Virus record (IMG/VR): IMGVR_UViG_3300045988_134583
Span: 9,820 to 73,819 of that record
Direction: 5' to 3' (one strand)
Length of the DNA: 64,000 nucleotides
DNA from: a virus
Each line of letters opens with the position of its first letter. The stretch's first letter is position 1. The translations under genes were made by a program, and so were the position numbers. Below, one piece after another: positions 2,143-63,923 of the stretch. A model generated the notes under the pieces. That model made no database searches, was not told the DNA's origin, and saw only the letters and a list, made by a program, of their open reading frames with translations.

Positions 2143-3021
2143 TCACCCTTCCCTATCTTCTTCGCTTCCCCACTTCCTGTACACGGTATCGCTGACGGAG
2201 ATATCCAGCCCGAAACGCTCTTTGAATGACATAATCTCCACTACATCGTCCAGTATGGGCTGACGGTCTTTGAGCATGTCCGGGGACATGTCGCCCTTGT
2301 GCAACATTGTCGGAAGTCCTGCACGGTTGGAAACTGCCTTATCCGCTATGGTATTGGCCTTAATGTAGTCCTGCCTTGTTAGTTCTCTTGTTCCCTGGAT
2401 CTCGTCACGCATCTTACGCATGGCTTCCTTCTGTTGCTCCTTGTCCATCATGCGGAAAACCTCAAAGCCTTCAAAGCCGCTCTTTTGTCGCAGGGTACGG
2501 AGCATGTTGTACACCCAGCGTCGGAACACCTTTGCTTCCTTCTTGCGGCTCATGAAGATAGCATCGTATACGGCAAGCTCGTTGGCGATCAAAAGCTCCT
2601 GCTGACCGCCGGAAGTAGGAATTAGCGCAGTAGACAATTCCGGGGCTTTATCCTCGCTCCCCTCGTTTGAAACGAGGGAAGATATACATTTTCTATCGTA
2701 TTTATACAGAGGAGTTTTTCTATCGCCGTCTGTACTTTTTGCAAGGGTATCGTTTGAAACGATACCCTTTATGCACTTCTTGTTATTTTTATTCTCATCA
2801 TTTTTTACCAGTTCGCCAAGCTTTTCCGAAAGGGTATTGTTTGAAACAATACCCTTTATGCATCCATATTCATCTGAAAGCCTATGTGCAACATTGTAAG
2901 CTTGCAACCCCAGTGCGTCGCATATGTCCTTCAACACGCCCCACCATTCTCCGTCCTTCCACACAAACCGAATGTTATGACCTGCCCAGTTTTCAACCTT
3001 AATTTCTGCCTTTGCCCTCAT
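2143..3021 (-). CDS. Bro-N domain protein with triplicated 29-aa insert
   Basis: GHNIRFVWKDGEWWGVLKDICDALG ... ELAVYDAIFMSRKKEAKVFRRWVYNML matches Bro-N. Start moved to the ATG at 3021 behind a GGAGG RBS. Internal CIKGIVSN(N/D)TL / CISSLVSNEG repeats. Confidence 0.75.
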   Translation of the reverse strand: MRAKAEIKVENWAGHNIRFVWKDGEWWGVLKDICDALGLQAYNVAHRLSDEYGCIKGIVSNNTLSEKLGELVKNDENKNNKKCIKGIVSNDTLAKSTDGDRKTPLYKYDRKCISSLVSNEGSEDKAPELSTALIPTSGGQQELLIANELAVYDAIFMSRKKEAKVFRRWVYNMLRTLRQKSGFEGFEVFRMMDKEQQKEAMRKMRDEIQGTRELTRQDYIKANTIADKAVSNRAGLPTMLHKGDMSPDMLKDRQPILDDVVEIMSFKERFGLDISVSDTVYRKWGSEEDREG

Positions 3022-3268
3022 GTGAGACCTCCATGTGTATCGATTGGATGTGATGCCCGAAAGCATAACAATCATTAGAACAAAAAAGCCGGGATTTGGA
3101 AACTGAAACGCCCTGGTTCACAATTTTTCTACCTTTACAGCGAACACATTTTCGGTTATGCCGTTAATAGCGGGATGTACATAGTACGAAATCGTACTAA
3201 AGAGCAGCCTTACGCATCGAAAACTGCAAAAATTAGTATAAGAGAGGGATAAAACCTCTCTTTTTCTA

Positions 3269-5675: not shown

Positions 5676-5966
5676 ATGAATCTTATCGAAACACAGGAAA
5701 GAACCTTCAAAGAGTTTAAGGACGCAGTTTCTCAGGCCAACGAAAAAGTTGATAAAATCTACAGCAAGGGCGTTGACACCATTGATCTGGTGCTGAACAT
5801 CGAAACCGCATTGCGTTTCCTTGCAACGGACAAACTAAGGGACATGGACGAAGATGTATTCCGCATGGTCAGTCTGGTTCTGACAGGGGCAATGCGCATC
5901 GAGGAAGAACTACAGGGAATTGTAGATGCGGTCTATGACGTGGGAAGGAGCCTGACCAATGAGTAG
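5676..5966 (+). CDS. hypothetical protein (96 aa)
   Basis: ORF with AAGAAAGGGA RBS. Its 3' end overlaps the next start (translational coupling). Confidence 0.55.
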   Translation: MNLIETQERTFKEFKDAVSQANEKVDKIYSKGVDTIDLVLNIETALRFLATDKLRDMDEDVFRMVSLVLTGAMRIEEELQGIVDAVYDVGRSLTNE

Positions 5967-6948
5967 GGCTTTAACAATCTTCAACCGGGACATAATCCCC
6001 GTCTACACCACCAACGAAGGTAAGCAGATAGTTATAGGCCGAGAGCTGCATAGATGCTTGCACAGCAAATACCAATACTTAGACTGGTTCAAGAAGATGT
6101 GCTCTTATGGTTTTGTTGAAGGGCAAGACTACTTCCCCTACATCCCCTCTTCCGAAACAGATGGAAATGAATACAAAAGTATTTTTTCAGAAAAAACTGA
6201 AAAAATCAAAAACCCCGAAGAACAGGAAAAAATTGGACGTGGCCGTCCTTCCCGAGACCACTATCTTACCTTCGATATGGCAAAGCACATTGCCATGATC
6301 CAGCGCACTCCCGAGGGATTTGCAATCCGTCAAAAGCTGTTGGAGCTGGAAGAACGTGTGCGTAACCAGATGGTCGCCCTTCCGCAAGACCTTCCCTCCG
6401 CATTGCGCAGACTGGCCGACACGGAAGAACAGAATCAGGCTCTCCGGTGCGCCAACAACCGCCTCCATTCCGAAGTGCAGACGATGGAACACGAGATCGG
6501 CCTGATGGTAGATAAAGCGGACTTCTGCGACACCCTGCAAAACACGACGAACCTTTTCAGCATGAAGGAGCTGTCCGTGTACCTGACGCAGAACGGCGTA
6601 CCACTGGGCAGAACGCGGCTGATGGAACAGCTTCGTAAGGACGGCTACTTATGCAAGGGTGGGCAGTACCGCAACTCCCCGTCGCAGTTCTCTATCGACA
6701 TGGGTCTGCTGATCGGGAGCATGACCACCTATAAGGAAGGGCGCAAGGTAATCCACTACACTTCCCCGAAGGCTACGGCAAAGGGCTTTGAATACTTCCT
6801 GCGCAAGTACGGAGCCGTCAAGGAGCATCACGCCGAGGACATTGCGAAGCTAAGAGCCGAAGCGGTCAAGGGATTGCCCGAGCCGAACAAGAAGCTGCTG
6901 CCTAAGCCGGAACCCCCGAAGAACCTTTACGGAAGCATCGACTTTTAG
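5959..6948 (+). CDS. phage antirepressor (AntA N-terminal + KilAC C-terminal type)
   Basis: N-terminus IIPVYTTNEGKQIVIGRELHRCLHSKYQYLDWFKKM is AntA-like. C-terminus FSMKELSVYLTQNGVPLGRTRLMEQLRKDGYL is KilA-C/ANT-like. Confidence 0.8.
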   Translation: MSRALTIFNRDIIPVYTTNEGKQIVIGRELHRCLHSKYQYLDWFKKMCSYGFVEGQDYFPYIPSSETDGNEYKSIFSEKTEKIKNPEEQEKIGRGRPSRDHYLTFDMAKHIAMIQRTPEGFAIRQKLLELEERVRNQMVALPQDLPSALRRLADTEEQNQALRCANNRLHSEVQTMEHEIGLMVDKADFCDTLQNTTNLFSMKELSVYLTQNGVPLGRTRLMEQLRKDGYLCKGGQYRNSPSQFSIDMGLLIGSMTTYKEGRKVIHYTSPKATAKGFEYFLRKYGAVKEHHAEDIAKLRAEAVKGLPEPNKKLLPKPEPPKNLYGSIDF

Positions 6949-7504: not shown

Positions 7505-8434
7505 ATGGACATTATCGAATTGCGGGACAGCTACATTGCATCCCTGAAAGCCGACAAGGCGCAGACTACGATTGAAGGGTATGCGCGGACGATCAATTTG
7601 TTCCTTGCTTGGGCGGGAGACAAAAACGCAAAGCTCAATACCGCAACGATAATGGGCTGGCGCTCCCACCTTGCCGAGGAAGGCGACGGCGTTACGACGA
7701 TCTCCCTGTACATGCAGCACATGCGGTACTGGTGCGAGTACATCAGCGCTATACAGGATGGATTTGTTATGCCTGATTTCGGCATTTTGAACCCAGATAA
7801 GCGCAGAGTGTCCGTAGCTAAGAAAAAGCCGTACAAGCACGTTCTGGGGCCTTCCGAGGTGATTGCTATTCTCAGTGCAGACAGGCCGAGCAAATGCAGC
7901 ACGGAGACATGGCCGAGGAATAAAGCGATCCTGACGTTATTCTTGACCGGCTCCATGCGCAATGCAGAGCTATGTTCTATCCGTCCCTGCGATCTGGACT
8001 GGGAATCGCATCAAATCCTTTTGGAGAATACGAAGGGCGGTATGCCCCGATATGCCGCCTTCCCCGCCATTGCGCAAAAGGCGGTAACGGAGTATCTGGA
8101 AAGCGGATACAGACCTAAAACGTTGAAGGATACAGACCCTTTGTTTGTCTCTTATCCGCAAGGGAATCCCTTCTGCTGGGGTGCGTTTGACCGGGATGTT
8201 TTAAGCTCCCTTGTAATGCGTCTGGTGCGCCTTATAACTGGCATTGATGGCATCCGCTCCCATGCGTTGAGACACGCTTCCGCATCTTTTATGCTGACGC
8301 ACGATGTGCCGTTGGATGAGATTCAGCAGGCGTTGGGGCACAGCAATATAAACACTACAATGCGCTATGCTCAGAGGATCGTCAACAAGGGAGAAGTACG
8401 AAAGAGTGTGTTCGATGCAATAGCCGCAGTATGA
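7505..8434 (+). CDS. tyrosine recombinase (XerC/D-like phage integrase family)
   Basis: N-terminal SAM-like core-binding region. C-terminus ...IRSHALRHASASFMLTHDVPLDEIQQALGHSNINTTMRYA carries the R..H..R..Y catalytic signature. Confidence 0.85.
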   Translation: MDIIELRDSYIASLKADKAQTTIEGYARTINLFLAWAGDKNAKLNTATIMGWRSHLAEEGDGVTTISLYMQHMRYWCEYISAIQDGFVMPDFGILNPDKRRVSVAKKKPYKHVLGPSEVIAILSADRPSKCSTETWPRNKAILTLFLTGSMRNAELCSIRPCDLDWESHQILLENTKGGMPRYAAFPAIAQKAVTEYLESGYRPKTLKDTDPLFVSYPQGNPFCWGAFDRDVLSSLVMRLVRLITGIDGIRSHALRHASASFMLTHDVPLDEIQQALGHSNINTTMRYAQRIVNKGEVRKSVFDAIAAV

Positions 8435-8474
8435 ACTTACATGCTAATCCGGTGTGCGAAATTAGTGCAAAAGA

Positions 8475-8499
8475 AAAAGCCGTCCGTATGGGCGGCTTT
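8475..8499. terminator. bidirectional hairpin terminator
   Basis: AAAAGCCGTCC-gtat-GGGCGGCTTT has an A-run on one side and a T-run on the other. Lies between the convergent recombinase and abiQ-like genes. Confidence 0.55.
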
Positions 8500-8536
8500 A
8501 TTCATTACGTCCACAGTTCACAGGCCGTGGTGTGTC

Positions 8537-8610
8537 TTTCATAAATCATCCGCGCTTGAAGCGGCGGAGCGCTTTTCATAAATCATCCGTACTCAAAGTA
8601 GCGGGGCACT
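8537..8610. repeat. two tandem 37-nt repeats with an internal variable hairpin
   Basis: TTTCATAAATCATCCG occurs twice (8537, 8574). It is followed by CGCTTgAAGCG in one unit and TACTcaaAGTA in the other, then GCGG(A/G)GC(G/A)C. Confidence 0.7.
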
Positions 8611-8627
8611 TTCCATTATCATTTATT

Positions 8628-9119
8628 TCAGATTTTCGGATACTCCATGCATTTAACTTCAAGAAGGGCAAAGTCGCAGCAGCGTTGTTTTACCTTAATG
8701 TCCTGCGGGGTCAAATTCTCATCGGCTTTAAGAACTAAGGTTCTTAGATTTTTAGCCGTTTTTATTATTTCGTTTTCGTCCGCCGTGATTAACCTTTGCT
8801 GGTTTTGCAGCAGGTTTCTATAATTGATATCAGGCTCCTTCTGTATATCGAAATAAAGAAGTTCTGCGCTTGGAACGGGGATCATATTATTGAAGTTTAT
8901 CGCTCCGTATTTTCCCCCTCCTATCTTTCTAAAGTCTTTGGTGTTTTTCATTTTCAAATGCTTTTTCTTCGGTGAGGAAAGAGGTGCGTAGTATTCCAAA
9001 TTTCCGATCTGCACCACAAAGCCGATGTATGGTCTCCGCTGACCCTTGTTTTCAGGAACCTTGGAATCGTAGCCCCTAAGATAAGATACATAGGCATCTT
9101 TGATGTGGTAAAATACCAT
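8628..9119 (-). CDS. toxN: type III toxin-antitoxin toxin, AbiQ/ToxN-family endoribonuclease
   Basis: FYHIKDAYVSYLRGYDSKVP...YYAPLSSPKKKH...INFNNMIPV...LRTLVL...CCDFALLE matches remembered ToxN/AbiQ blocks (FY.I...Y..YL...D.KVP, Y.APL.SPKK.H, MIP, C.F.LLE). GGAGGGGAG RBS. Confidence 0.9.
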   Translation of the reverse strand: MVFYHIKDAYVSYLRGYDSKVPENKGQRRPYIGFVVQIGNLEYYAPLSSPKKKHLKMKNTKDFRKIGGGKYGAINFNNMIPVPSAELLYFDIQKEPDINYRNLLQNQQRLITADENEIIKTAKNLRTLVLKADENLTPQDIKVKQRCCDFALLEVKCMEYPKI

Positions 9120-9133
9120 TCTCCCCTCCGCAT

Positions 9134-9157
9134 AAAAAAAGGGGGAATAAATCCCCC
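9134..9157 (-). terminator. intrinsic terminator between antitoxin repeats and toxin gene
   Basis: On the minus strand, GGGGGA-tttat-TCCCCC is followed by TTTTTTT. This is the canonical type III TA architecture. Confidence 0.75.
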
Positions 9158-9160
9158 AAC

Positions 9161-9270
9161 TTTTTTAGTTCCCCGCTTGTTGGTGGGGGGTCACCGCTTT
9201 TTTAGTTCCTCTCTCATGGTGGAGGCTCACCGCTTTTTCCGTTCCTCGCTTATTGGTGGAGGCTCACCGC
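9161..9270 (-). ncRNA. toxI: type III antitoxin RNA repeat array (3 tandem repeats of 36-37 nt)
   Basis: Minus-strand units are GCGGTGAGCCTCCACCAATAAGCGAGGAACGGAAAAA, GCGGTGAGCCTCCACCATGAGAGAGGAACTAAAAAA and GCGGTGACCCCCCACCAACAAGCGGGGAACTAAAAAA. They sit immediately upstream of the terminator and toxin. Confidence 0.8.
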
Positions 9271-9282
9271 TTTTATGTCTCT

Positions 9283-9311
9283 ATTATATGCAGTCAGTTC
9301 AATAAAAACAA
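9283..9311 (-). promoter_or_regulatory. putative promoter of the TA locus
   Basis: Minus strand: TTGTTT, 17-nt spacer, TATAAT, about 12 nt upstream of the first repeat. Confidence 0.4.
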
Positions 9312-9353
9312 TAGGTTTTGGCAAAAAAATTTAGGAATTTTTATCCTTTTTTG

Positions 9354-9392
9354 AAAAAAGAGGGCTTCAATACCGCAATGTCTTTAGCCCTC
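9354..9392 (-). terminator. putative terminator after holin gene
   Basis: Minus strand: GAGGGCT...(21-nt loop)...AGCCCTC followed by TTTTTT. The long loop lowers confidence. Confidence 0.45.
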
Positions 9393-9415
9393 CTTTCCTC
9401 GTCCCTTATAAATTA

Positions 9416-9631
9416 TTAGAGTACGCCGCCAAAATCCTTATTGTACTGTGCCGTGGAGATGCACAGGATAGCGCCCAGAAATACGGTAGCGCCGTTGATA
9501 GTAGCTACGATTTGGTCAGCATAGGGAAAACCCCAAGTGTTGGCCAGAAGCGCATAGAAGGTTGCGACAGCGGGCAGTACAATTATTACTACCCATTTTA
9601 GCACATCATATACACGATCAGGAAGTTTCAT
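9416..9631 (-). CDS. putative holin
   Basis: 71 aa with two hydrophobic helices (WVVIIVLPAVATFYALL; ATVFLGAILCIST). Directly downstream of the endolysin. Confidence 0.6.
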   Translation of the reverse strand: MKLPDRVYDVLKWVVIIVLPAVATFYALLANTWGFPYADQIVATINGATVFLGAILCISTAQYNKDFGGVL

Positions 9632-9678
9632 TGCTTCAAATCCTTTCTTTAATTTGCTTTTTCTATGGATACACGCGA

Positions 9679-10461
9679 TCAGGCATCGATCATCTGCGTG
9701 TATTTTGGAATGTTGGAAATGTAGGCTTCTTGCCCCTTGTATAGGATTTTATACCAGCCCGTCTTTTCGTGCAAACCGAGATACGGGAACGTGTCTCCCC
9801 TGTGTGCGGTTCCCAGCCTCTTGCTGGAAGCATATCCGTCTGCACGAACGTTGACGGAACCGCCTACTACTTTTACCTTCTTCTCGCAGACAACAGGTGG
9901 AGTATCCGGGGCTTCCGGCTCTACGGGCTTTATATCCCCCGTTATTTCGTCCTTAAACACCAGAGGTATTCCCCATTTGTGCCAGTACCGTTCTTTGAAT
10001 TTAACACGCACTACGCCAGTCCTGCGGCCTTCTGCATGAATACACTCCGTATCGGAGATCATGTACCCTACATGGGATACACGACCGTTTGCATTTTCCC
10101 GGAAGAGCCAGTACCCTTTCTTCGGTGCTTCGGTTTTCGGCACCATAGCGCAGCGGGAAGCCATAGTATTGGAGTTTACATCCATCTTGTACAGCTTTTT
10201 CAGGTTATACAGCCAATATACTCCCAAGCCGGAACAGTCATAGGCATACAAAACAGTGGCTCCTGCATCGAATTTCTTCTTGCAGAACTTTTTTGCAGCC
10301 TCCGCATAGGTCATATTTGGATATCCGCCCGTGCGTTTTTCGCATTTATCTACCACCTGTTCATAGTTTTCAGGGGTAAGTTTCGTATGCTGCCCGCCCC
10401 AGAGATATGGTTGCCCAACCTGTTCTTTCAAATACTTTATAAAGTCGGTAAGGTTACTCAT
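9679..10461 (-). CDS. endolysin: NlpC/P60-type peptidase + C-terminal SH3-like domain
   Basis: PYLWGG...YAYDCSGLGVYWLY...SHVGYM fits the NlpC/P60 Cys-His pattern. C-terminus VNVRADGYASSKRLGTAHRGDTFPYLG...WYKILYKGQEAYI is SH3b-like. Start set at the ATG behind GGAGGTGG. Confidence 0.8.
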   Translation of the reverse strand: MSNLTDFIKYLKEQVGQPYLWGGQHTKLTPENYEQVVDKCEKRTGGYPNMTYAEAAKKFCKKKFDAGATVLYAYDCSGLGVYWLYNLKKLYKMDVNSNTMASRCAMVPKTEAPKKGYWLFRENANGRVSHVGYMISDTECIHAEGRRTGVVRVKFKERYWHKWGIPLVFKDEITGDIKPVEPEAPDTPPVVCEKKVKVVGGSVNVRADGYASSKRLGTAHRGDTFPYLGLHEKTGWYKILYKGQEAYISNIPKYTQMIDA

Positions 10462-10575
10462 TGCTCGTGACCACCTCCACATATATGCCTGCCAGCGCAG
10501 AAAGATCGTGGTACAATGGTGTACCGCTGTCTCTCATGCAGACGATTCTTTATCCCGTTGAGGACTTCCCGTATA

Positions 10576-27492: not shown

Positions 27493-27566
27493 TGGCAGGG
27501 ATGGAAGGTATCGAACCTTCTGCATCCGGGTCAAAACCGGATATTCTCCCTTTGAACTACATCCCT
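27493..27566 (-). tRNA. tRNA-Gln (anticodon UUG), CCA encoded
   Basis: Manual cloverleaf: acceptor AGGGATG/CATCCCT, D stem GTTC/GAAT, anticodon stem TCCGG/CCGGA with loop TTTTGAC, T arm GAAGG-TTCGATA-CCTTC, then GCCA. Confidence 0.85.
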
Positions 27567-35119: not shown

Positions 35120-35195
35120 TGGCGGGAACGGTAGGTTTCGAACCTACAGCCTTCCGGTTAACAGCCGGATGCTCTACCTGTTGAGCTACGAACCC
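35120..35195 (-). tRNA. tRNA-Asn (anticodon GUU), CCA encoded, with two U-U mismatches in acceptor stem
   Basis: GGGTTCG-TA-GCTC-AACAGGTA-GAGC-A-TCCGG-CTGTTAA-CCGGA-AGGCT-GTAGG-TTCGAAA-CCTAC-CGTTCCC-G-CCA. Acceptor positions 4:69 and 5:68 are T/T. Confidence 0.8.
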
Positions 35196-49271: not shown

Positions 49272-50080
49272 GCCGCATAACTCCTGTAACCACGCATGAA
49301 GTAGCAGAGGTAATTCAACGCTTCCTGATCTTTCATTCCAACCCATGTGTGAGACATTTTCAGCTTCTTCCCAATCTCCCGCATAGGGATATTAAGACAG
49401 TAGTGCATGTAAACAATCTTCTTGCAATCTTCGGTAAGGTGTTTAAGGGAGTTTTCCAGATCGACCCGCAGATTGGAATAGTCCTCGAAGGGAGCGTCAG
49501 ATGCGAGGGTATCCATAATGGTTTTCACGCCTTCCCGGTCATTGCAGATAGGAGCGTCCAGATAGGAAACGCCGACGTAGGAGGAAATGAGCAGATAGTA
49601 ATCGTACTCAGACATTCCCATCTCATGAGCCACGGCCTCGTTAGCGGTTTTGGCATCGCCCTCTTTCAGCAGCGTGGAGAATCGCTTGATTGCCTTACGG
49701 GCTTTGGCTCTGTCGTGCTCCGGAATATGCAGCTGAGCGCAGTTACGCTCGTAAACGGTGAACTCACCCTTGATCTTGTAATAGGCGAAGGTGGAGAATT
49801 TAACGGAAGAATCCAAACTGAACTGGTCTACCGCCTTGCAAAGCCCCATGCACCCGGTCTGGATGCAATCTTCCCAATCGGGAGTACAGCTGCCGTAGTG
49901 GTCGTTTATATACTTGGCTACGAGGCGCATGTTCCCTTCGATGCACTTTTCTCTGGCCTGATCGTCCCCGGCGTGTGCGAGGCGGATAAGGCGCATGGAT
50001 TCTTCGTTGGAGATAGAAGGATAATCTTTCAGGTCGATAAAGAACCTGTTTTCCATTTCGCGGTACTTACTCTTGCACAT
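49268..50080 (-). CDS. sigma-70 family RNA polymerase sigma factor
   Basis: Region 2: NMRLVAKYINDHY...EDCIQTGCMGLCKAVDQFSLDSSVKFSTFAYYKIKGE. Region 4: LTEDCKKIVYMHYCLNIPMREIGKKLKMSHTWV. Confidence 0.75.
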   Translation of the reverse strand: MCKSKYREMENRFFIDLKDYPSISNEESMRLIRLAHAGDDQAREKCIEGNMRLVAKYINDHYGSCTPDWEDCIQTGCMGLCKAVDQFSLDSSVKFSTFAYYKIKGEFTVYERNCAQLHIPEHDRAKARKAIKRFSTLLKEGDAKTANEAVAHEMGMSEYDYYLLISSYVGVSYLDAPICNDREGVKTIMDTLASDAPFEDYSNLRVDLENSLKHLTEDCKKIVYMHYCLNIPMREIGKKLKMSHTWVGMKDQEALNYLCYFMRGYRSYAA

Positions 50081-50846
50081 ATTGTCTGCTTTCCTCCGTA
50101 GCCAGAAATTTATTGACGAAATAAAGCTGCCCCTTCCCGGTAATGACGGGTGTCTTATTGATGATCGTGCCGGAAGGAGTGGAAACGGTTCTTTCCTTGA
50201 TCTCCATCAATCCAAGCTCCATGCTGTACTGGGTAGGCATGTTCTTTGACTGCCCATCCTTCATAAGGTATCCGCTGCTTCTTAACCAATCGAACATCCG
50301 GGTTCGGCCAATGTCCACGCCGTTCTGACGGATGATCTTTGCCAGATCGCCTACGAGGATGGTGCTTTCGGAAGTACCTACCGAATCAGCGAACAGGACT
50401 TTTGGAGCGTTCTCCTTCTCCCTTGCTTCCAACGCTTTGCGCTTTTCCGTTTCCTCTTTCAGGGCGGTAGCCAGCTTAATGAGGTAGTCGGGGTTGAGCA
50501 GTGCGGCTTCAAGAGTTTCGGGGGTAAGGTAGGCACCGTGTTTACGGATTGTGGGTAACACTTCATCAAATACCCAGCGTTCAAACTTCTCAGCGGTGGG
50601 GAGCTTACTATGCGTTATGAGACGGTATACATCGCCCTCTGCGATAAACAGCATTTCCTGTTCCCCGCCGTTTGTAGGGATACGCCGTTTTAGCGTACCC
50701 TTTGCATGACGAGCAACTGCTTCGTTTGGTCTACTGTATCCGAGCGCCCTCGCAACATCGGATCCGCAGAACAACGGCTTCCCGTTTTCCTCGATCGTTC
50801 GTACTTCACCAAACTGTTCATTACGGAATACTTGCATCTCTTCCAT
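50067..50846 (-). CDS. Bro-N + KilAC-type antirepressor
   Basis: VFRNEQFGEVRTIEENGKPLFCGSDVARALGY...KLPTAEKFERWVFDEVLPTIRKHG. C-terminus ILVGDLAKIIRQNGVDIGRTRMFDWLRSSGYL. Confidence 0.8.
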   Translation of the reverse strand: MEEMQVFRNEQFGEVRTIEENGKPLFCGSDVARALGYSRPNEAVARHAKGTLKRRIPTNGGEQEMLFIAEGDVYRLITHSKLPTAEKFERWVFDEVLPTIRKHGAYLTPETLEAALLNPDYLIKLATALKEETEKRKALEAREKENAPKVLFADSVGTSESTILVGDLAKIIRQNGVDIGRTRMFDWLRSSGYLMKDGQSKNMPTQYSMELGLMEIKERTVSTPSGTIINKTPVITGKGQLYFVNKFLATEESRQYVQE

Positions 50847-52037: not shown

Positions 52038-52322
52038 CTATCCGGCTGTGCGGGCTTTTCTCTCCGCAGCGTCCTTTTTAAGCTGCTTGTCTGCAATGTG
52101 CAGGGTGTTCTCAATGTTCTTGAGTTTCCGGCGCATAAGCGTTTTTTCCGTGTCCTCCTGCATTGGTTCGGACTGATCGAATATAGAGTCGGAGATATTG
52201 CCCAGAGTGACCGCATAGCCCTTTACGAGCGTTACAAGGGCTTTCATGTTCCGGGCATGTTCCGAGCAGGATCCTTTGTCGTCAAAGGTTACGATGTTGC
52301 CGTTCTTAATGATGATCTTCAC
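52038..52322 (-). CDS. hypothetical protein (94 aa)
   Basis: ORF overlapping the upstream stop by 4 nt. Confidence 0.45.
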   Translation of the reverse strand: MKIIIKNGNIVTFDDKGSCSEHARNMKALVTLVKGYAVTLGNISDSIFDQSEPMQEDTEKTLMRRKLKNIENTLHIADKQLKKDAAERKARTAG

Positions 52323-53116
52323 TGGTTTTTACCTCCCTTAAAAATTGCTTTTCCGTTGATCCTGAAATCTTCGATAATGTTTCTGTAAATCTTGGAGAAA
52401 TGGGCTTTGCCCTGCGGGGTAATCATCGTGCGCTTTCCTACATGGCCTGTAGATGCTTGGAAGTCTTTGAGGACGAAGTAACCGGCGTTCTTATTGGCGT
52501 TAGGTCTGAACTCTCTCGTGCGGCCTGTAGTGCGGTAGATATATTCGCTATCCAGCAGGAGGTTGATAAAGGCGCGTTCCGGAAGTCCTATCTGCTTTGC
52601 GGTGTCCCGGAAGTTGCTGAGGGAAGCATCCGCATGAATGAAGCTATCGTAGTAATCGGCCTTGGGGAGCATCTGCTCGTTCTCGTATTGGAGCGCTGCC
52701 GTTTTCTTCCGTTCTTCCTTTAAGGCGGTAAGGAGCTGGATGCCAAACTCCGGGGAAGCGATCATCTGATCTACTACGTTGGGTGTGATGTATGCACCGT
52801 GCTTGCGGATGGAGGGGATAACCTCGTCGAATACCCAACGCTCGAATTTTTCTGCGGATGGGAGTTTGCTGTGTGCGATAAGACGATAGACATTTCCTTC
52901 TGTAATGAACTTCGCCTGCTGCTCTCTACCCATGCTGTCTATGACTGGGCAAATTGCCCACCCATCTTCCTTGCAGTGCAGCTTTATTGCCTTTGCAGTA
53001 TCTGCATACCCGAGTGCCCTCGCAACATCTGTTCCGCAGAAAAGAATCTGTCCGTTTTTCTCGATCGTTCGTACAGAGCCGAAGTCGTTGTTCTTGAAGA
53101 TTTGAATGTCTACCAT
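52319..53116 (-). CDS. Bro-N domain antirepressor-like protein
   Basis: Start at MVDIQIF behind AAGGAG. FKNNDFGSVRTIEKNGQILFCGTDVARALGY...KLPSAEKFERWVFDEVIPSIRKHG. Confidence 0.8.
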   Translation of the reverse strand: MVDIQIFKNNDFGSVRTIEKNGQILFCGTDVARALGYADTAKAIKLHCKEDGWAICPVIDSMGREQQAKFITEGNVYRLIAHSKLPSAEKFERWVFDEVIPSIRKHGAYITPNVVDQMIASPEFGIQLLTALKEERKKTAALQYENEQMLPKADYYDSFIHADASLSNFRDTAKQIGLPERAFINLLLDSEYIYRTTGRTREFRPNANKNAGYFVLKDFQASTGHVGKRTMITPQGKAHFSKIYRNIIEDFRINGKAIFKGGKNQ

Positions 53117-53130
53117 TGATGCTTCTCCTT

Positions 53131-53268
53131 TTAGTCGTGTGTACACTCCCGCAGTATTTGCAGGATAAAGGCGTTCATCGTCAGTCCTTCATATGCGGCT
53201 TCACTCTTGATAATTTCATAAAGCCAATCCGGAACCGCTATTCCAATTCGTTTCTTGTTCGTCACCAT
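53131..53268 (-). CDS. small RHH (Arc/CopG-like) protein, 45 aa
   Basis: My translation: MVTNKKRIGIAVPDWLYEIIKSEAAYEGLTMNAFILQILRECTHD, behind AGGAGGTG. Below the track cutoff. Confidence 0.5.
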   Translation of the reverse strand: MVTNKKRIGIAVPDWLYEIIKSEAAYEGLTMNAFILQILRECTHD

Positions 53269-55816: not shown

Positions 55817-56890
55817 ATGGCTAAAAATAAGAAAGGAAAGATACCCACGATAATAGAACTGCCATCCGGGTCTTACAGGATGCAGGCATGGGACAATGCG
55901 GCTAAGAGAAAAGTTTCGTTTGTCGCCGACGATTGCGAAACCGTTATGCGTGAATACCTCGAATGGCGGATGGCACAAAGCAGAAAGATTGATGTGGGAA
56001 TAACCGTAGGGGAAGCGGTAGACCGTTATATCAATGCAAAAAGAGGAACATTGGCTCCATCTACCATAGAAGGATACGAAAACAAGCGAAGAAACTCCTT
56101 TAAGAGTCTTATGGATTTACCATGCAAAAAACTGACGCCGGAGATAGTGCAGGCAGCTATAAGCGCCGAGAAAACAAGGATATCATACAAATCAAAGGCC
56201 GCCATGTCCAGCAAAACAGTTAAGAACGCCTATGCACTCATAGAATCTGCATTGAAGATGCAGAATATAACTCTGCCGGACGTGACGCTTCCGGAGGAAA
56301 CGAAGCGGATTGTGGAATTGCCGGAAGCATCGGAAGTCCTGGCTGCCATCGTAGGAACAAAGTCAGAACTTCCTGCCCTGCTTGCCATGTGGTTATCTCT
56401 TTCCATGTCAGAGGTAAGAGGAATACAGGTGGATGCAATAAAGAATGGATACCTAACCATAAAAGAGAGCAGAATCCGGGTCGGCGGCGTAGATATGAAA
56501 AAGAATTGCTGCAAAGAGTTTGAGCGGACGAGAAAGCTGCAAATACCAGACAGAATCATGCACCTTATAGAAGAAACCGAGGCATGGAAAAATCAGTCTG
56601 GGTACATCGTCCCCGAAAGTGGCAAGGTCATATGGCAGAACTTCACAAATGCGTTAAAGAAGGCAGGAGTGCAGCATATGCGTTTTCATGATCTTCGTCA
56701 TATGAACGCATCCATAATGACTTACCTGAATATACCGGAACGTTATGCAATGGAAAGAGGCGGTTGGAAAAGGCCAGACACGCTCCGGAAAGTGTATCAG
56801 CATACATTTTCAAAAGAACGTGTGCAGGTAGACAACAGTGTGGATGAATTTATGAACGGGCTGTTTGACGATCTTGAGAAGAACAAATAA
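55817..56890 (+). CDS. int: tyrosine integrase
   Basis: AAAGGAGG RBS. ...MRFHDLRHMNASIMTYLNIPERYAMERGGWKRPDTLRKVYQH carries the catalytic H-x-x-R ... Y. Confidence 0.85.
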   Translation: MAKNKKGKIPTIIELPSGSYRMQAWDNAAKRKVSFVADDCETVMREYLEWRMAQSRKIDVGITVGEAVDRYINAKRGTLAPSTIEGYENKRRNSFKSLMDLPCKKLTPEIVQAAISAEKTRISYKSKAAMSSKTVKNAYALIESALKMQNITLPDVTLPEETKRIVELPEASEVLAAIVGTKSELPALLAMWLSLSMSEVRGIQVDAIKNGYLTIKESRIRVGGVDMKKNCCKEFERTRKLQIPDRIMHLIEETEAWKNQSGYIVPESGKVIWQNFTNALKKAGVQHMRFHDLRHMNASIMTYLNIPERYAMERGGWKRPDTLRKVYQHTFSKERVQVDNSVDEFMNGLFDDLEKNK

Positions 56891-58009: not shown

Positions 58010-58738
58010 TTATATTGCCCCGTACCTTCTGAGGAAATATTCCAGCCCCCGTTGCGTGACGTATGTAGTGCTCCGGATCTCCACTTCTCCGTTATGGAGG
58101 TACTTGCTTTGCTTCACTTCCATCAGCCCCATATCCAAAGAATCCTGCGTGGGAAGGTTTTTAGTCGGGCCTGCCTTGCAAATATACCCATCGTTGCGCA
58201 GGAGAGAGAAAAGCCGGTTACGTCCAATTTTAACGCCGTTGGAGGAAAGATAGGCGGACAGCTCCTTAACCTGCATTACAGACTTTGTATCCCGAACTGC
58301 ATCGTAATACTCGGCTTTAGGGAGCATTTCCCGGTTCTTCTCCTGCAAGGCCAGTCTTTCTTCCTCGCTTGCAACAAGGGCTTTCAAGGCGGATATATAG
58401 TCATGCGGAAGCATTGTGTAGCTTCCGGTTTTACGGATGCTGGGAATAACGTCATGGGTGATCCAGCGCTTAAAGGCTTTTGCTTCGGGCTTGCGGGAAC
58501 CAAGGATCAAGGTATATAGTCCGGGTTCGTTCACCACGTTTACCGGAAGCCCGTTGCTGGCACCCTCGATTGAAACGAGGGTGCGCTCGTCGGCATCCAG
58601 ACGGCGCATAGCATCGGTGGGATTCCCAATCTCCAACGCCTTGCATACGTCAGCCGCTACAAACCAAGGTTCACCGTCAATTACAGTCACTCTAACATCA
58701 CCGAATTTTTCGTTTTTGTACAGCTGAATATCTGCCAT
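58010..58738 (-). CDS. Bro-N + KilAC-type antirepressor
   Basis: LYKNEKFGDVRVTVIDGEPWFVAADVCKALEI...NEPGLYTLILGSRKPEAKAFKRWITHDVIP. C-terminus MQVKELSAYLSSNGVKIGRNRLFSLLRNDGYI. Confidence 0.8.
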   Translation of the reverse strand: MADIQLYKNEKFGDVRVTVIDGEPWFVAADVCKALEIGNPTDAMRRLDADERTLVSIEGASNGLPVNVVNEPGLYTLILGSRKPEAKAFKRWITHDVIPSIRKTGSYTMLPHDYISALKALVASEEERLALQEKNREMLPKAEYYDAVRDTKSVMQVKELSAYLSSNGVKIGRNRLFSLLRNDGYICKAGPTKNLPTQDSLDMGLMEVKQSKYLHNGEVEIRSTTYVTQRGLEYFLRRYGAI

Positions 58739-63194: not shown

Positions 63195-63923
63195 TCACAT
63201 TAAAACATGGCTCATCAACACTGCCGTGGTCACAGGCCCCACGCCGCCCTTGAAGGGGATGAGGTTGATCCCAGGATCGTACTCCTCGTACCCATCACCA
63301 ACATAGTCCCCTCCTACGTTAATCACTGTGCATCCGCGAGGCACCCACGTCCAGTCCAGCAGTCCCTTTTGTCCCGATGCACATACGACAATATCCGCAT
63401 TGCCTACCTGCTCTATCAGTTTTGCCTTTTCCGTCTTGCTGTGGCACACCGTCACAGTGGCATCCCGAGCCAGCAGGAGCATGGCCGTAGGCTTGCCTAC
63501 TCTCTCCGACCGCCCGATTACTACCGCATGTTTGCCCGCTATGGGAATATTGTAGTAGTCCAGCATACGGATGATCGCTTCGGCGGTGCAGGGAGTGTAT
63601 TCGCACATCTCTCCTACATAAGCCTTTACCCGTCCAGCATCGTTTTGCCCGTCCATGGCGTAAAAACCGAACGCGTCTGAGGCCGGTGGCTTACGCACAT
63701 CCAGCACCGTAAACGTCCCCATCCTTCCCGCCTGTAAAAGACTTTCCGCGTACACCAGTCTTACCTGCCACCGCTCGGCCTCCCGCTGGATTGCCGCCAG
63801 ATATCCCTTGTCCGATGTATCATCCTTGATAACCGTAAGTATGCGTTTCCACGCCATTGCCTCAATCCACTCTGCGTACTGCTCCCGCAGGGCATCCGCT
63901 ACTGGTTTGCCGTATAAGATCAT
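63195..63923 (-). CDS. FolD-like methylenetetrahydrofolate dehydrogenase/cyclohydrolase homolog
   Basis: GKHAVVIGRSERVGKPTAMLLLARDATVTVCHSKT...ADIVVCASGQKGLL...VINVG...KGGVGPVTTAVLMSHV parallels E. coli FolD (G.S..VG.P, T..H..T, GGVGP). AAAGGAGG RBS. Confidence 0.7.
   Translation of the reverse strand: MILYGKPVADALREQYAEWIEAMAWKRILTVIKDDTSDKGYLAAIQREAERWQVRLVYAESLLQAGRMGTFTVLDVRKPPASDAFGFYAMDGQNDAGRVKAYVGEMCEYTPCTAEAIIRMLDYYNIPIAGKHAVVIGRSERVGKPTAMLLLARDATVTVCHSKTEKAKLIEQVGNADIVVCASGQKGLLDWTWVPRGCTVINVGGDYVGDGYEEYDPGINLIPFKGGVGPVTTAVLMSHVLM

Follow-up and report, generated by a model that had tools for sequence, protein, structure and literature searches.

In toxin-antitoxin loci of type III, a promoter stands ahead of an array of antitoxin repeats, and the succession of repeats, terminator and toxin gene is considered the defining architecture (PMC5086642). 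The P. atrosepticum plasmid pECA1039 carries a ToxIN system (2XD0/2XDD) with 5.5 identical 36-nt repeats, the B. thuringiensis plasmid pAW63 carries a second (4ATO; Rfam RF02519) with a documented plasmid-retention role, and the AbiQ/antiQ system of the L. lactis plasmid pSRQ900 (4GLK) has a terminator behind its 2.8 repeats of 35 nt. Chromosomal toxIN loci occur in gut Firmicutes; Blower et al. listed R. torques ATCC 27756 and Ruminococcus sp. 5_1_39BFAA as toxIN hosts in 2012 and already aligned such ToxI sequences as pseudoknots, and the Firmicute loci assayed in that study were cptIN, not toxIN (PMC3401426). The only toxIN cited on a prophage is that of C. botulinum D-1873 (PMC5086642), and according to a 2025 survey, phages other than D-1873 had no reported type III system prior to the survey's own tenpN findings (PMC12283969). 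Here we describe a complete type III toxIN/AbiQ-type locus on the minus strand of a viral DNA stretch of 64,000 nucleotides (IMG/VR record IMGVR_UViG_3300045988_134583, positions 9,820 to 73,819; hereafter the window), where it immediately follows a phage's lysis genes.

Direct reading of positions 8400-9600 gives, in order on the minus strand, a candidate promoter, three repeats, an intrinsic terminator, a ribosome-binding site (RBS) and toxN (Table 1). This layout, with repeats of 37, 36 and 37 nt and a 163-residue product, had been proposed from the letters alone in an earlier annotation (the original prediction), which also placed it behind the lysis cassette; each of these elements was recovered in place, and Tandem Repeats Finder (TRF), Pfam, PADLOC, the PDB, the terminator scan and Foldseek agree on the canonical arrangement. 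TRF delimits the array at 9160-9274 with a period of 37, 3.1 copies and a score of 167; the mean column identity among the units is 92%, and the array stops 41 nt before the toxN ATG on the same strand. The intervening terminator is strong, with a GC-rich stem of 6 bp. The same organization recurs in a comparison set of 87 loci encoding toxin relatives (80 genomic and 7 viral): in 74 of the 87, TRF finds arrays of 34-40-nt units repeated 2-3 times, at a distance of 30-120 nt upstream of the toxin, and a counterpart of the terminator (hairpin plus T-run, no more than 110 nt before the ATG) is present in 70/84 related loci.

The toxin had been assigned to its family from sequence motifs, and the blocks quoted (FY.I, YL..D.KVP, YAPLSSPKKKH, NMIPV, LVL, C.F.LLE) are all in the translation. 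The profile search supports the assignment: the protein matches Pfam PF13958 (ToxN_toxin) at E=9.5e-49 and 166 bits (cut-off 25), covering profile positions 1-159 of 159, and PADLOC AbiQ at E=9.1e-41. Among PDB sequences, phmmer retrieves 7d8o (ToxN_Ec), 4ato (ToxN_Bt) and 2xd0 (ToxN_Pa) at E~1e-18 and AbiQ at E=5e-8. An AlphaFold2 model built on an alignment of 36 relatives, with a predicted local distance difference test score (pLDDT) of 92.7 and a predicted template modelling score (pTM) of 0.87, aligns in Foldseek with 2xd0, 4ato, 7d8o and 4glk at template modelling (TM) scores of 0.78-0.84; no other fold is significant, and the next matches, CcdB and MazF, have E>0.1. The toxin does not fall in the CptN or TenpN family: ToxN_toxin and AbiQ were the sole matches in Pfam and PADLOC, and the significant structure matches were all ToxN/AbiQ. 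The active-site residues of ToxN_Pa and ToxN_Ec, K33, T52, S53 and K55 (PMC8860590), align to R29, S48, S49 and K51 of the window toxin; R29, S49, P50 and K51 are invariant across 36 toxin relatives, and K33R is a known natural variant that also occurs in E. coli ToxN clusters 4 and 5 (PMC8860590). By sequence and modelled fold, the protein is thus a full-length ToxN/AbiQ toxin in which the catalytic positions are kept, and its exact sequence is present in 73 assembly-collection blocks.

The repeats belong to the family of known ToxI RNAs. A covariance model (R1) was built from 105 distinct units with only the hairpin of stem 1 specified, a restriction made because a bias towards stem 2 was to be avoided; a plain MAFFT alignment of the units misplaced indels in the 3' half and was dropped in favor of the stem-1-only alignment. 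In the window the model finds exactly three units (E=1.5e-9 to 2.3e-8; the next best match has E=0.29), far more than chance would give. Across the 87 loci it yields 221 significant matches, every one of them on the strand that encodes the toxin and almost all just upstream of its gene. Units of related loci are visibly homologous to those of the window (consensus GCGGTGAGTCTCCACCATAAAGAGAGAACCTAAAAAA), which differ by 2-7 edits from units of bacterial toxIN loci; unit 2 is 2 edits from a unit of one such locus (L023). R1 likewise picks up ToxI_Bt (E=5e-5) and, in collinear register, the ToxI_Pa units; the ToxI_Pa unit AGGTGATTTGCTACCTTTAAGTGCAGCTAGAAATTC aligns to the window unit GCGGTGAGCCTCCACCAATAAGCGAGGAACTAAAAAA. 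The original prediction had suggested a new RNA variant unrelated to known ToxI sequences; because the repeats are homologous to catalogued toxIN units and to both ToxI_Bt and ToxI_Pa, this suggestion is not supported. The Rfam search that it had proposed returned no match of RF02519 (ToxI) to the repeats at E<=10 over positions 8400-9700 (gathering threshold 50 bits), only terminator-like noise. RF02519 is a 34-nt profile of the B. thuringiensis type that scores 59, 47 and 37 bits on the ToxI_Bt units and nothing on ToxI_Pa of pECA1039. Since it also misses the archetypal ToxI_Pa, failing it says little about membership in the broad ToxI family, and the Rfam miss was rejected as a sign of novelty.

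The terminal A-run of the unit is 93-100% conserved across the repeat family and is consistent with the published cleavage sites, which are A^AAAA for ToxN_Bt, A^AAA for AbiQ and AA^AU for ToxN_Pa (PMC7781912); by analogy, the cut in the window would also fall in this run. ToxI-like arrays are probably widely unannotated or mis-annotated, because RF02519 misses both ToxI_Pa and the window family. Three further observations concern these arrays. Two bacterial loci contain extra ToxI-like units ~200-300 nt downstream of a ToxN homologue (L061:4673-4707 and L073:4736-4805), pointing to either another toxIN locus in tandem or an orphan array of antitoxin units. In the RefSeq record of pECA1039, a "hypothetical protein" coding sequence is annotated over the toxI repeats (357-578), and in the window a similar spurious open reading frame (ORF) of 66 residues runs antisense through the repeats (9105-9305, plus strand).

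Covariation among the units provides evidence for a ToxI-like fold. The original prediction had described a GGTG-N6-CACC hairpin with a variable loop; the hairpin holds, whereas the variable "loop" is strand 2a of a pseudoknot, so that the hairpin-only view does not. The difference between loops (AGCCTC versus ACCCCC) is matched downstream, where units 1 and 2 have GAGG and unit 3 has GGGG. Pairing of the CCUC/CCCC loop with GAGG/GGGG therefore gives each unit an H-type pseudoknot, which was tested as ..((((..[[[[))))..........]]]]......... on 103 distinct units. On the stem-1-only alignment, 98.0% of the cells of the pseudoknot are paired. For stem 2 the figure is 99.2%, with compensatory changes at three of the four pairs (one pair is UA in 59 units, CG in 36 and UG in 8); this pairing is unbiased by the alignment because the alignment model contained stem 1 only. 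When the stem 2 partners are slid by 1-3 columns only 41-62% remain paired, and neither the pairing nor the covariation score observed is reached in any of 500 shuffles. At the closing position of stem 1, 50/103 units have G-U; G-U pairs this frequent fit only an RNA read from the toxin strand. Stem 1 has 3-4 bp; 2-3 nt separate it from stem 2a, 0-1 nt lie between stem 2a and stem 1b, and a 7-nt A-rich loop precedes stem 2b. This geometry, loop length included, corresponds to the "Group I" ToxI of Blower et al. (PMC3401426). The G preceding stem 2b, which intercalates in ToxI_Pa (PMC3401426), is kept in the window repeat family. In L096, a related phage allele, all three units have the CCCC/GGGG stem seen in unit 3. 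A further covariation, not of the Watson-Crick type, links columns 13 and 26 of the unit alignment (A4), that is, the nucleotide that directly precedes stem 1b and the one that directly precedes stem 2b (T/T in 51 units, C/A in 29, C/C in 7, C/T in 6; C/C, C/A and C/C in the window units). It is a candidate tertiary contact, a base triple that would resemble the triplexes of the ToxI_Pa crystal structure.

Compared with the described systems, the window locus is closest to the chromosomal toxIN loci of the gut Firmicutes R. torques ATCC 27756 and Ruminococcus sp. 5_1_39BFAA, whose toxins belong to the same subfamily (56-61% identity). These loci share with it a ~37-nt ToxI unit in about three copies, the terminator placement and the pseudoknot register; they differ in stem 2, which is UCUC/GAGA in the Firmicute loci and CCUC/GAGG or CCCC/GGGG in the phage-borne array. 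The pECA1039 system has the same order of promoter (a candidate in the window), repeats, terminator and toxN, and its toxin the same fold (TM 0.81), at ~30% identity and with the substitutions K33 to R29 and T52 to S48. Its ToxI unit is collinear with that of the window (GGUGA-xxxxC-xACC-xxUAAGx-GxxG) and forms the same two stems, although stem 2 is UUGC/GCAG instead of CCUC/GAGG, its repeats are identical whereas the three window units are not, and its unit junction is AGAAAUUC (cut AA^AU) instead of a run of five or six A residues. The pAW63 toxin is the best structural match (TM 0.84; 31% protein identity). The 34-nt ToxI_Bt unit, UUGGUGUAACUCUACCGUAGUGAGUACCAAAAAA, ends in an A-run as in the window, and its published cut (A^AAAA) fits that run (PMC7781912); its loop between stems 1b and 2b is shorter. 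AbiQ, which also cleaves in an A-rich stretch (PMC7781912), is the most distant solved relative, with the same fold (TM 0.78) at 26% identity. The toxIN of C. botulinum phage D-1873 and the annotated ToxN of Fusobacterium phage phiFN37 are phage- or prophage-carried, like the window locus, but their toxins are only 34-40% identical to its own and they occupy other slots, the neurotoxin locus in D-1873 and a position between morphogenesis genes in phiFN37; placement at a lysis-integrase junction is undescribed for toxIN. By every feature that can be tested on sequence, the window locus is a toxIN-family member, of a protein family and an RNA that are already known and with a phage carriage that is uncommon but documented.

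Table 1. Features of the toxIN locus and its flanks in the window
Feature	Coordinates	Strand	Details and basis
Lysis cassette	9416-10482	-	NlpC/P60+SH3 lysin 10482-9679; Dp-1-type holin 9631-9416
Candidate lysis-operon terminator, upstream of toxIN promoter	9354-9392	-	7-bp stem GAGGGCT/AGCCCTC, 19-nt loop, T6; direct reading only
Candidate sigma-70-type promoter	9283-9311	-	-35 TTGTTT 9311-9306, 17-nt spacer, -10 TATAAT 9288-9283
ToxI-like repeat unit 1	9234-9270	-	37 nt, GCGGTGAGCCTCCACCAATAAGCGAGGAACGGAAAAA; TRF; covariance-model E=6.2e-9; stems GGTG/CACC and CCTC/GAGG
ToxI-like repeat unit 2	9198-9233	-	36 nt, GCGGTGAGCCTCCACCATGAGAGAGGAACTAAAAAA; covariance-model E=1.5e-9
ToxI-like repeat unit 3	9161-9197	-	37 nt, GCGGTGACCCCCCACCAACAAGCGGGGAACTAAAAAA; covariance-model E=2.3e-8; compensatory stem 2 variant CCCC/GGGG
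Intrinsic terminator/attenuator between antitoxin array and toxin	9134-9157	-	GGGGGA-TTTAT-TCCCCC 9157-9141, then T7 9140-9134; terminator scan
RBS GGAGG	9125-9129	-	5 nt before toxN ATG; direct reading
toxN, 163-aa ToxN/AbiQ-family endoribonuclease toxin	8628-9119	-	ORF; profile and structure matches
Hairpin and T-run downstream of toxN	8467-8501	-	AAAGCCGCCCATACGGACGGCTTTTTCTTTT; weak Rfam matches to terminator-like parts of counter-transcribed RNA (ctRNA)/leader models
Tyrosine recombinase (phage integrase family), 309 aa, convergent with toxN	7505-8434	+	Pfam Phage_integrase 3.5e-24; PHROG integrase 4.2e-34

The flanking genes place the cassette within a phage genome. The lysin matches Pfam NLPC_P60 (1e-8) and SH3_3 (1.7e-8), and the holin matches Pfam Phage_holin_Dp1 (4.7e-23) and PHROG holin (8.7e-24). 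Farther upstream, the same strand as the toxin encodes tail-fibre, tail, tape-measure (23669-18750), portal, replication and RecT/YqaJ recombination functions. Contigs from independent assemblies, 73,719, 73,776 and 73,755 bp long, break at different places; near-equal lengths with different breaks imply a complete circular or circularly permuted genome of ~73.7 kb, of which the window is a part, and the cassette is thus truly carried by a phage. Among the 73 blocks with the toxin, no contig >200 kb contains toxN. The hairpin downstream of toxN, kept in the sister phages L096 and L092, is likely a bidirectional terminator common to toxN and the convergent recombinase gene. With low confidence, the hairpin between the holin gene and the toxIN promoter may be the terminator of the lysis operon; it fell outside the terminator scan because its loop is too long for that scan. 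No word >14 nt is common to the spacer between toxN and the recombinase gene and any other part of the window, the neighbourhood of a second integrase gene included, and the attachment site (attP) and prophage ends were therefore not located.

Several other features of the window were recorded. The second tyrosine recombinase gene (55817-56890, plus strand) is essentially unrelated to that beside toxN (BLASTP E=7e-4 over 24 residues); one of the two may be the integrase and the other a dimer-resolution or inversion enzyme. Six antirepressor-like paralogues with Bro-N/ANT/KilAC domains (1298-1933, 2143-3075, 5959-6948, 50067-50846, 52319-53146 and 58010-58738) form an unusually large set spread over both window ends. 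An ORF at 63195-63923 (minus strand) matches tetrahydrofolate dehydrogenase/cyclohydrolase (FolD) in its NAD(P)-binding domain (Pfam E=1.3e-37) and is either a phage auxiliary metabolic gene or the start of host DNA. A tRNA-Gln(UUG) gene (27493-27566) and a tRNA-Asn(GUU) gene (35120-35195), both on the minus strand, lie amid the structural and packaging genes. Just past the toxN stop, a stretch of ~120 bp (8504-8623) that is missing from L096 contains the 15-nt direct repeat GGATGATTTATGAAA twice, and a gene caller places a 37-aa ORF in this segment in metagenomic contigs; it could contain a recombinase-binding or att-related sequence, or be a functionless indel.

Comparison of the window with its sister phages reveals variation of the cassette on a shared backbone. 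L096 and L092 (5700-6720, corresponding to window positions 8400-9420) have the same slot between holin and recombinase genes, with flanks that are ~95-97% identical, whereas the L096 cassette is only 60-80% identical to that of the window at the nucleotide level. The L096 toxin is intact (72% amino acid identity), and its gene differs from the window toxN by 46 synonymous and 47 non-synonymous codon differences. Its three repeats have the CCCC/GGGG stem 2, UC for AG in loop 1 and AGC for AAC in the 3' tail. On a single phage backbone, toxin and antitoxin have thus changed in step, which looks like cassette exchange or diversifying co-evolution.

Carriage by other viruses is sparse and scattered. 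A scan of IMG/VR with the single toxin protein found nothing, and a profile-based scan found 7 viral loci. Of 50,697 GenBank phage records, 4 contain a homologue, among them C. botulinum phage D-1873 and two Clostridioides elements of ~132 kb, one of which is named in plasmid style (pCD1602_4). A blastn comparison of the locus with GenBank phage sequences gave one weak match only. Other viral carriers (IMGVR_UViG_645058813_000003, locus L087 and phage phiFN37) have the cassette in very different slots. The slots seen elsewhere are a tail module, between Dit and tail genes; a position beside a DarB-like antirestriction gene; and one between neck and unknown genes. The cassette therefore behaves as a mobile accessory unit, and defence and toxin-antitoxin modules at the junction of lysis and integration genes are a familiar pattern in prophages. 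In one viral locus (L081) toxIN lies beside an integrase. A conserved toxIN-recombinase module was considered and rejected, because the window's two recombinases and that of L081 are essentially unrelated.

With its observed architecture, toxin family, RNA homology, pseudoknot covariation, terminator conservation and phage context, the locus is very probably a toxIN-family type III toxin-antitoxin operon, functional by analogy with its relatives, and an accessory ("moron") cassette of a probably temperate gut phage of ~74 kb. The identity of the toxin across 73 blocks and the intact allele of L096 speak for selection on it. The course proposed for it, from processing and the exact cleavage site to complex stoichiometry, toxicity, trigger and biological role, is modelled on characterised systems. 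A single promoter would drive transcription of the three ToxI-like repeats, and the intrinsic terminator would stop most transcripts, giving an excess of antitoxin RNA, with read-through supplying toxN mRNA. ToxN, a MazF/Kid-like endoribonuclease, would cleave the precursor in the invariant A-runs that bound the units and release RNAs of 36-37 nt. Each RNA would fold into an H-type pseudoknot (stem 1 GG(U)G/CACC, stem 2 CCUC/GAGG) with the A-rich 7-nt loop across stem 1, and its single-stranded tails would fill the ToxN active site, producing a closed, inactive ToxN:ToxI assembly. If transcription of the locus stopped, or if turnover of ToxI exceeded its synthesis, as upon infection by another phage or loss of the element, ToxN would be freed to cut cellular and viral RNAs at A-rich sites, leading to arrest or death of the cell. 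The phage might thereby gain abortive-infection protection of its lysogen against competing phages, a penalty on prophage loss, or both; by analogy, a role in defence or addiction in lysogens is plausible.

Some observations weigh against this reading. Although the -10 element of the putative promoter is perfect and published type III loci have a promoter at the same position (PMC5086642), the -35 element is weak, and the consensus scan missed the promoter because that element fits TTGACA at just 3/6 positions; the region is identical in L092 and near-identical in L096, but despite this conservation the promoter remains a candidate because the scan did not list it. Tyr29 of ToxN_Pa has no aligned counterpart in the window toxin, where it falls in a 4-residue gap. 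The minimum free energy fold of the whole array is no better than that of shuffles (z = -0.97), a null result that is expected and uninformative because the folding tool cannot model pseudoknots. Finally, cptIN loci of related gut Firmicutes conferred no phage resistance in E. coli (PMC3401426), and the present analysis does not distinguish a defence role from addiction.

Alternative roles differ mainly in what the phage would gain. The locus could serve mainly as an addiction module that stabilizes a prophage or phage-plasmid, in that cells losing the element would stop making labile ToxI and be killed by residual ToxN. The contigs with different breaks fit a circular or circularly permuted replicon, toxN is absent from all contigs >200 kb among the 73 blocks, the GenBank carriers include D-1873 and the plasmid-style-named pCD1602_4, and the type C/D toxin phages of C. 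botulinum are maintained as plasmid-like prophages. Plasmid retention is also promoted by ToxIN_Bt (PMC4615649). However, headful-packaged virion DNA equally predicts circular contigs, the presence of two tyrosine recombinase genes and numerous antirepressors speaks for a temperate phage that integrates, and no ParA, ParB or ParM was found among ~40 ORFs in a scan that was not exhaustive. Addiction and defence are also not mutually exclusive, and addiction as the main role seems possible but rather unlikely. A more speculative proposal, which we regard as improbable, starts from the interchangeable, diverged toxI-toxN pairs that closely related phages have in this one slot. These alleles could define phage "incompatibility" or exclusion groups, in which the ToxIN of a lysogen aborts sibling phages with a non-cognate allele, and the mixed array of the window (two CCUC/GAGG units and, similar to the L096 allele, one CCCC/GGGG unit) would act as a partial master key that neutralizes the ToxN of a competitor or host.

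The same heterogeneity of units could widen the range of ToxN proteins neutralized if the array were mainly a decoy antitoxin that counters host ToxN during infection, with the linked toxN secondary. The pseudo-ToxI of phage PhiTE escape mutants is a precedent, and the likely host lineages (Lachnospiraceae, Ruminococcus, Blautia, Clostridiales, Treponema) often carry toxIN, with ToxI units 2-7 edits from those of the phage. Yet toxN, which a pure decoy would not need, is intact with its catalytic residues, is identical in 73 blocks and stays intact in the diverged L096; a canonical terminator and RBS are kept as well, and ToxI-ToxN pairs are reported to be cognate-selective, to judge from the title of PDB entry 4ato ("selective toxin inhibition by a non-coding RNA"). 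A decoy as the main function is thus very improbable. That the repeats act as DNA, as arm sites of the recombinase near attP or as operator repeats, and not as an RNA antitoxin, might be supposed from the adjoining tyrosine recombinase gene and an attachment site that was not located, but the chance of this is negligible: the repeat family lies upstream of ToxN homologues in dozens of unrelated contexts and always on the toxin strand, its pairs covary in an RNA-specific manner that includes G-U, a terminator follows the array in most related loci, and the units are homologous to structurally solved ToxI RNAs. The strand-constant linkage and RNA covariation effectively refute it, and a strand-specific covariation together with constant linkage to toxN likewise ruled out CRISPR-like repeats or DNA-binding sites.

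The locus reveals no new mechanism, and its value is as an example and a resource. It is a clean and complete toxIN on a widespread gut phage of ~73.7 kb, with an identical toxin in 73 blocks, set against a literature that acknowledges one phage-borne toxIN (PMC12283969). Across Firmicutes and Treponema, the ~220 aligned units lend covariation support to the ToxI pseudoknot. Two by-products are the most useful: an allele pair for specificity studies, and a broad ToxI alignment and model. The window locus and the L096 allele, 72% identical and in the same slot, form a natural pair for mapping the determinants of ToxI-ToxN specificity, and since the Rfam ToxI model is too narrow, a broader one could annotate many antitoxins that are at present unannotated, such as the toxI of pECA1039 beneath its "hypothetical protein".

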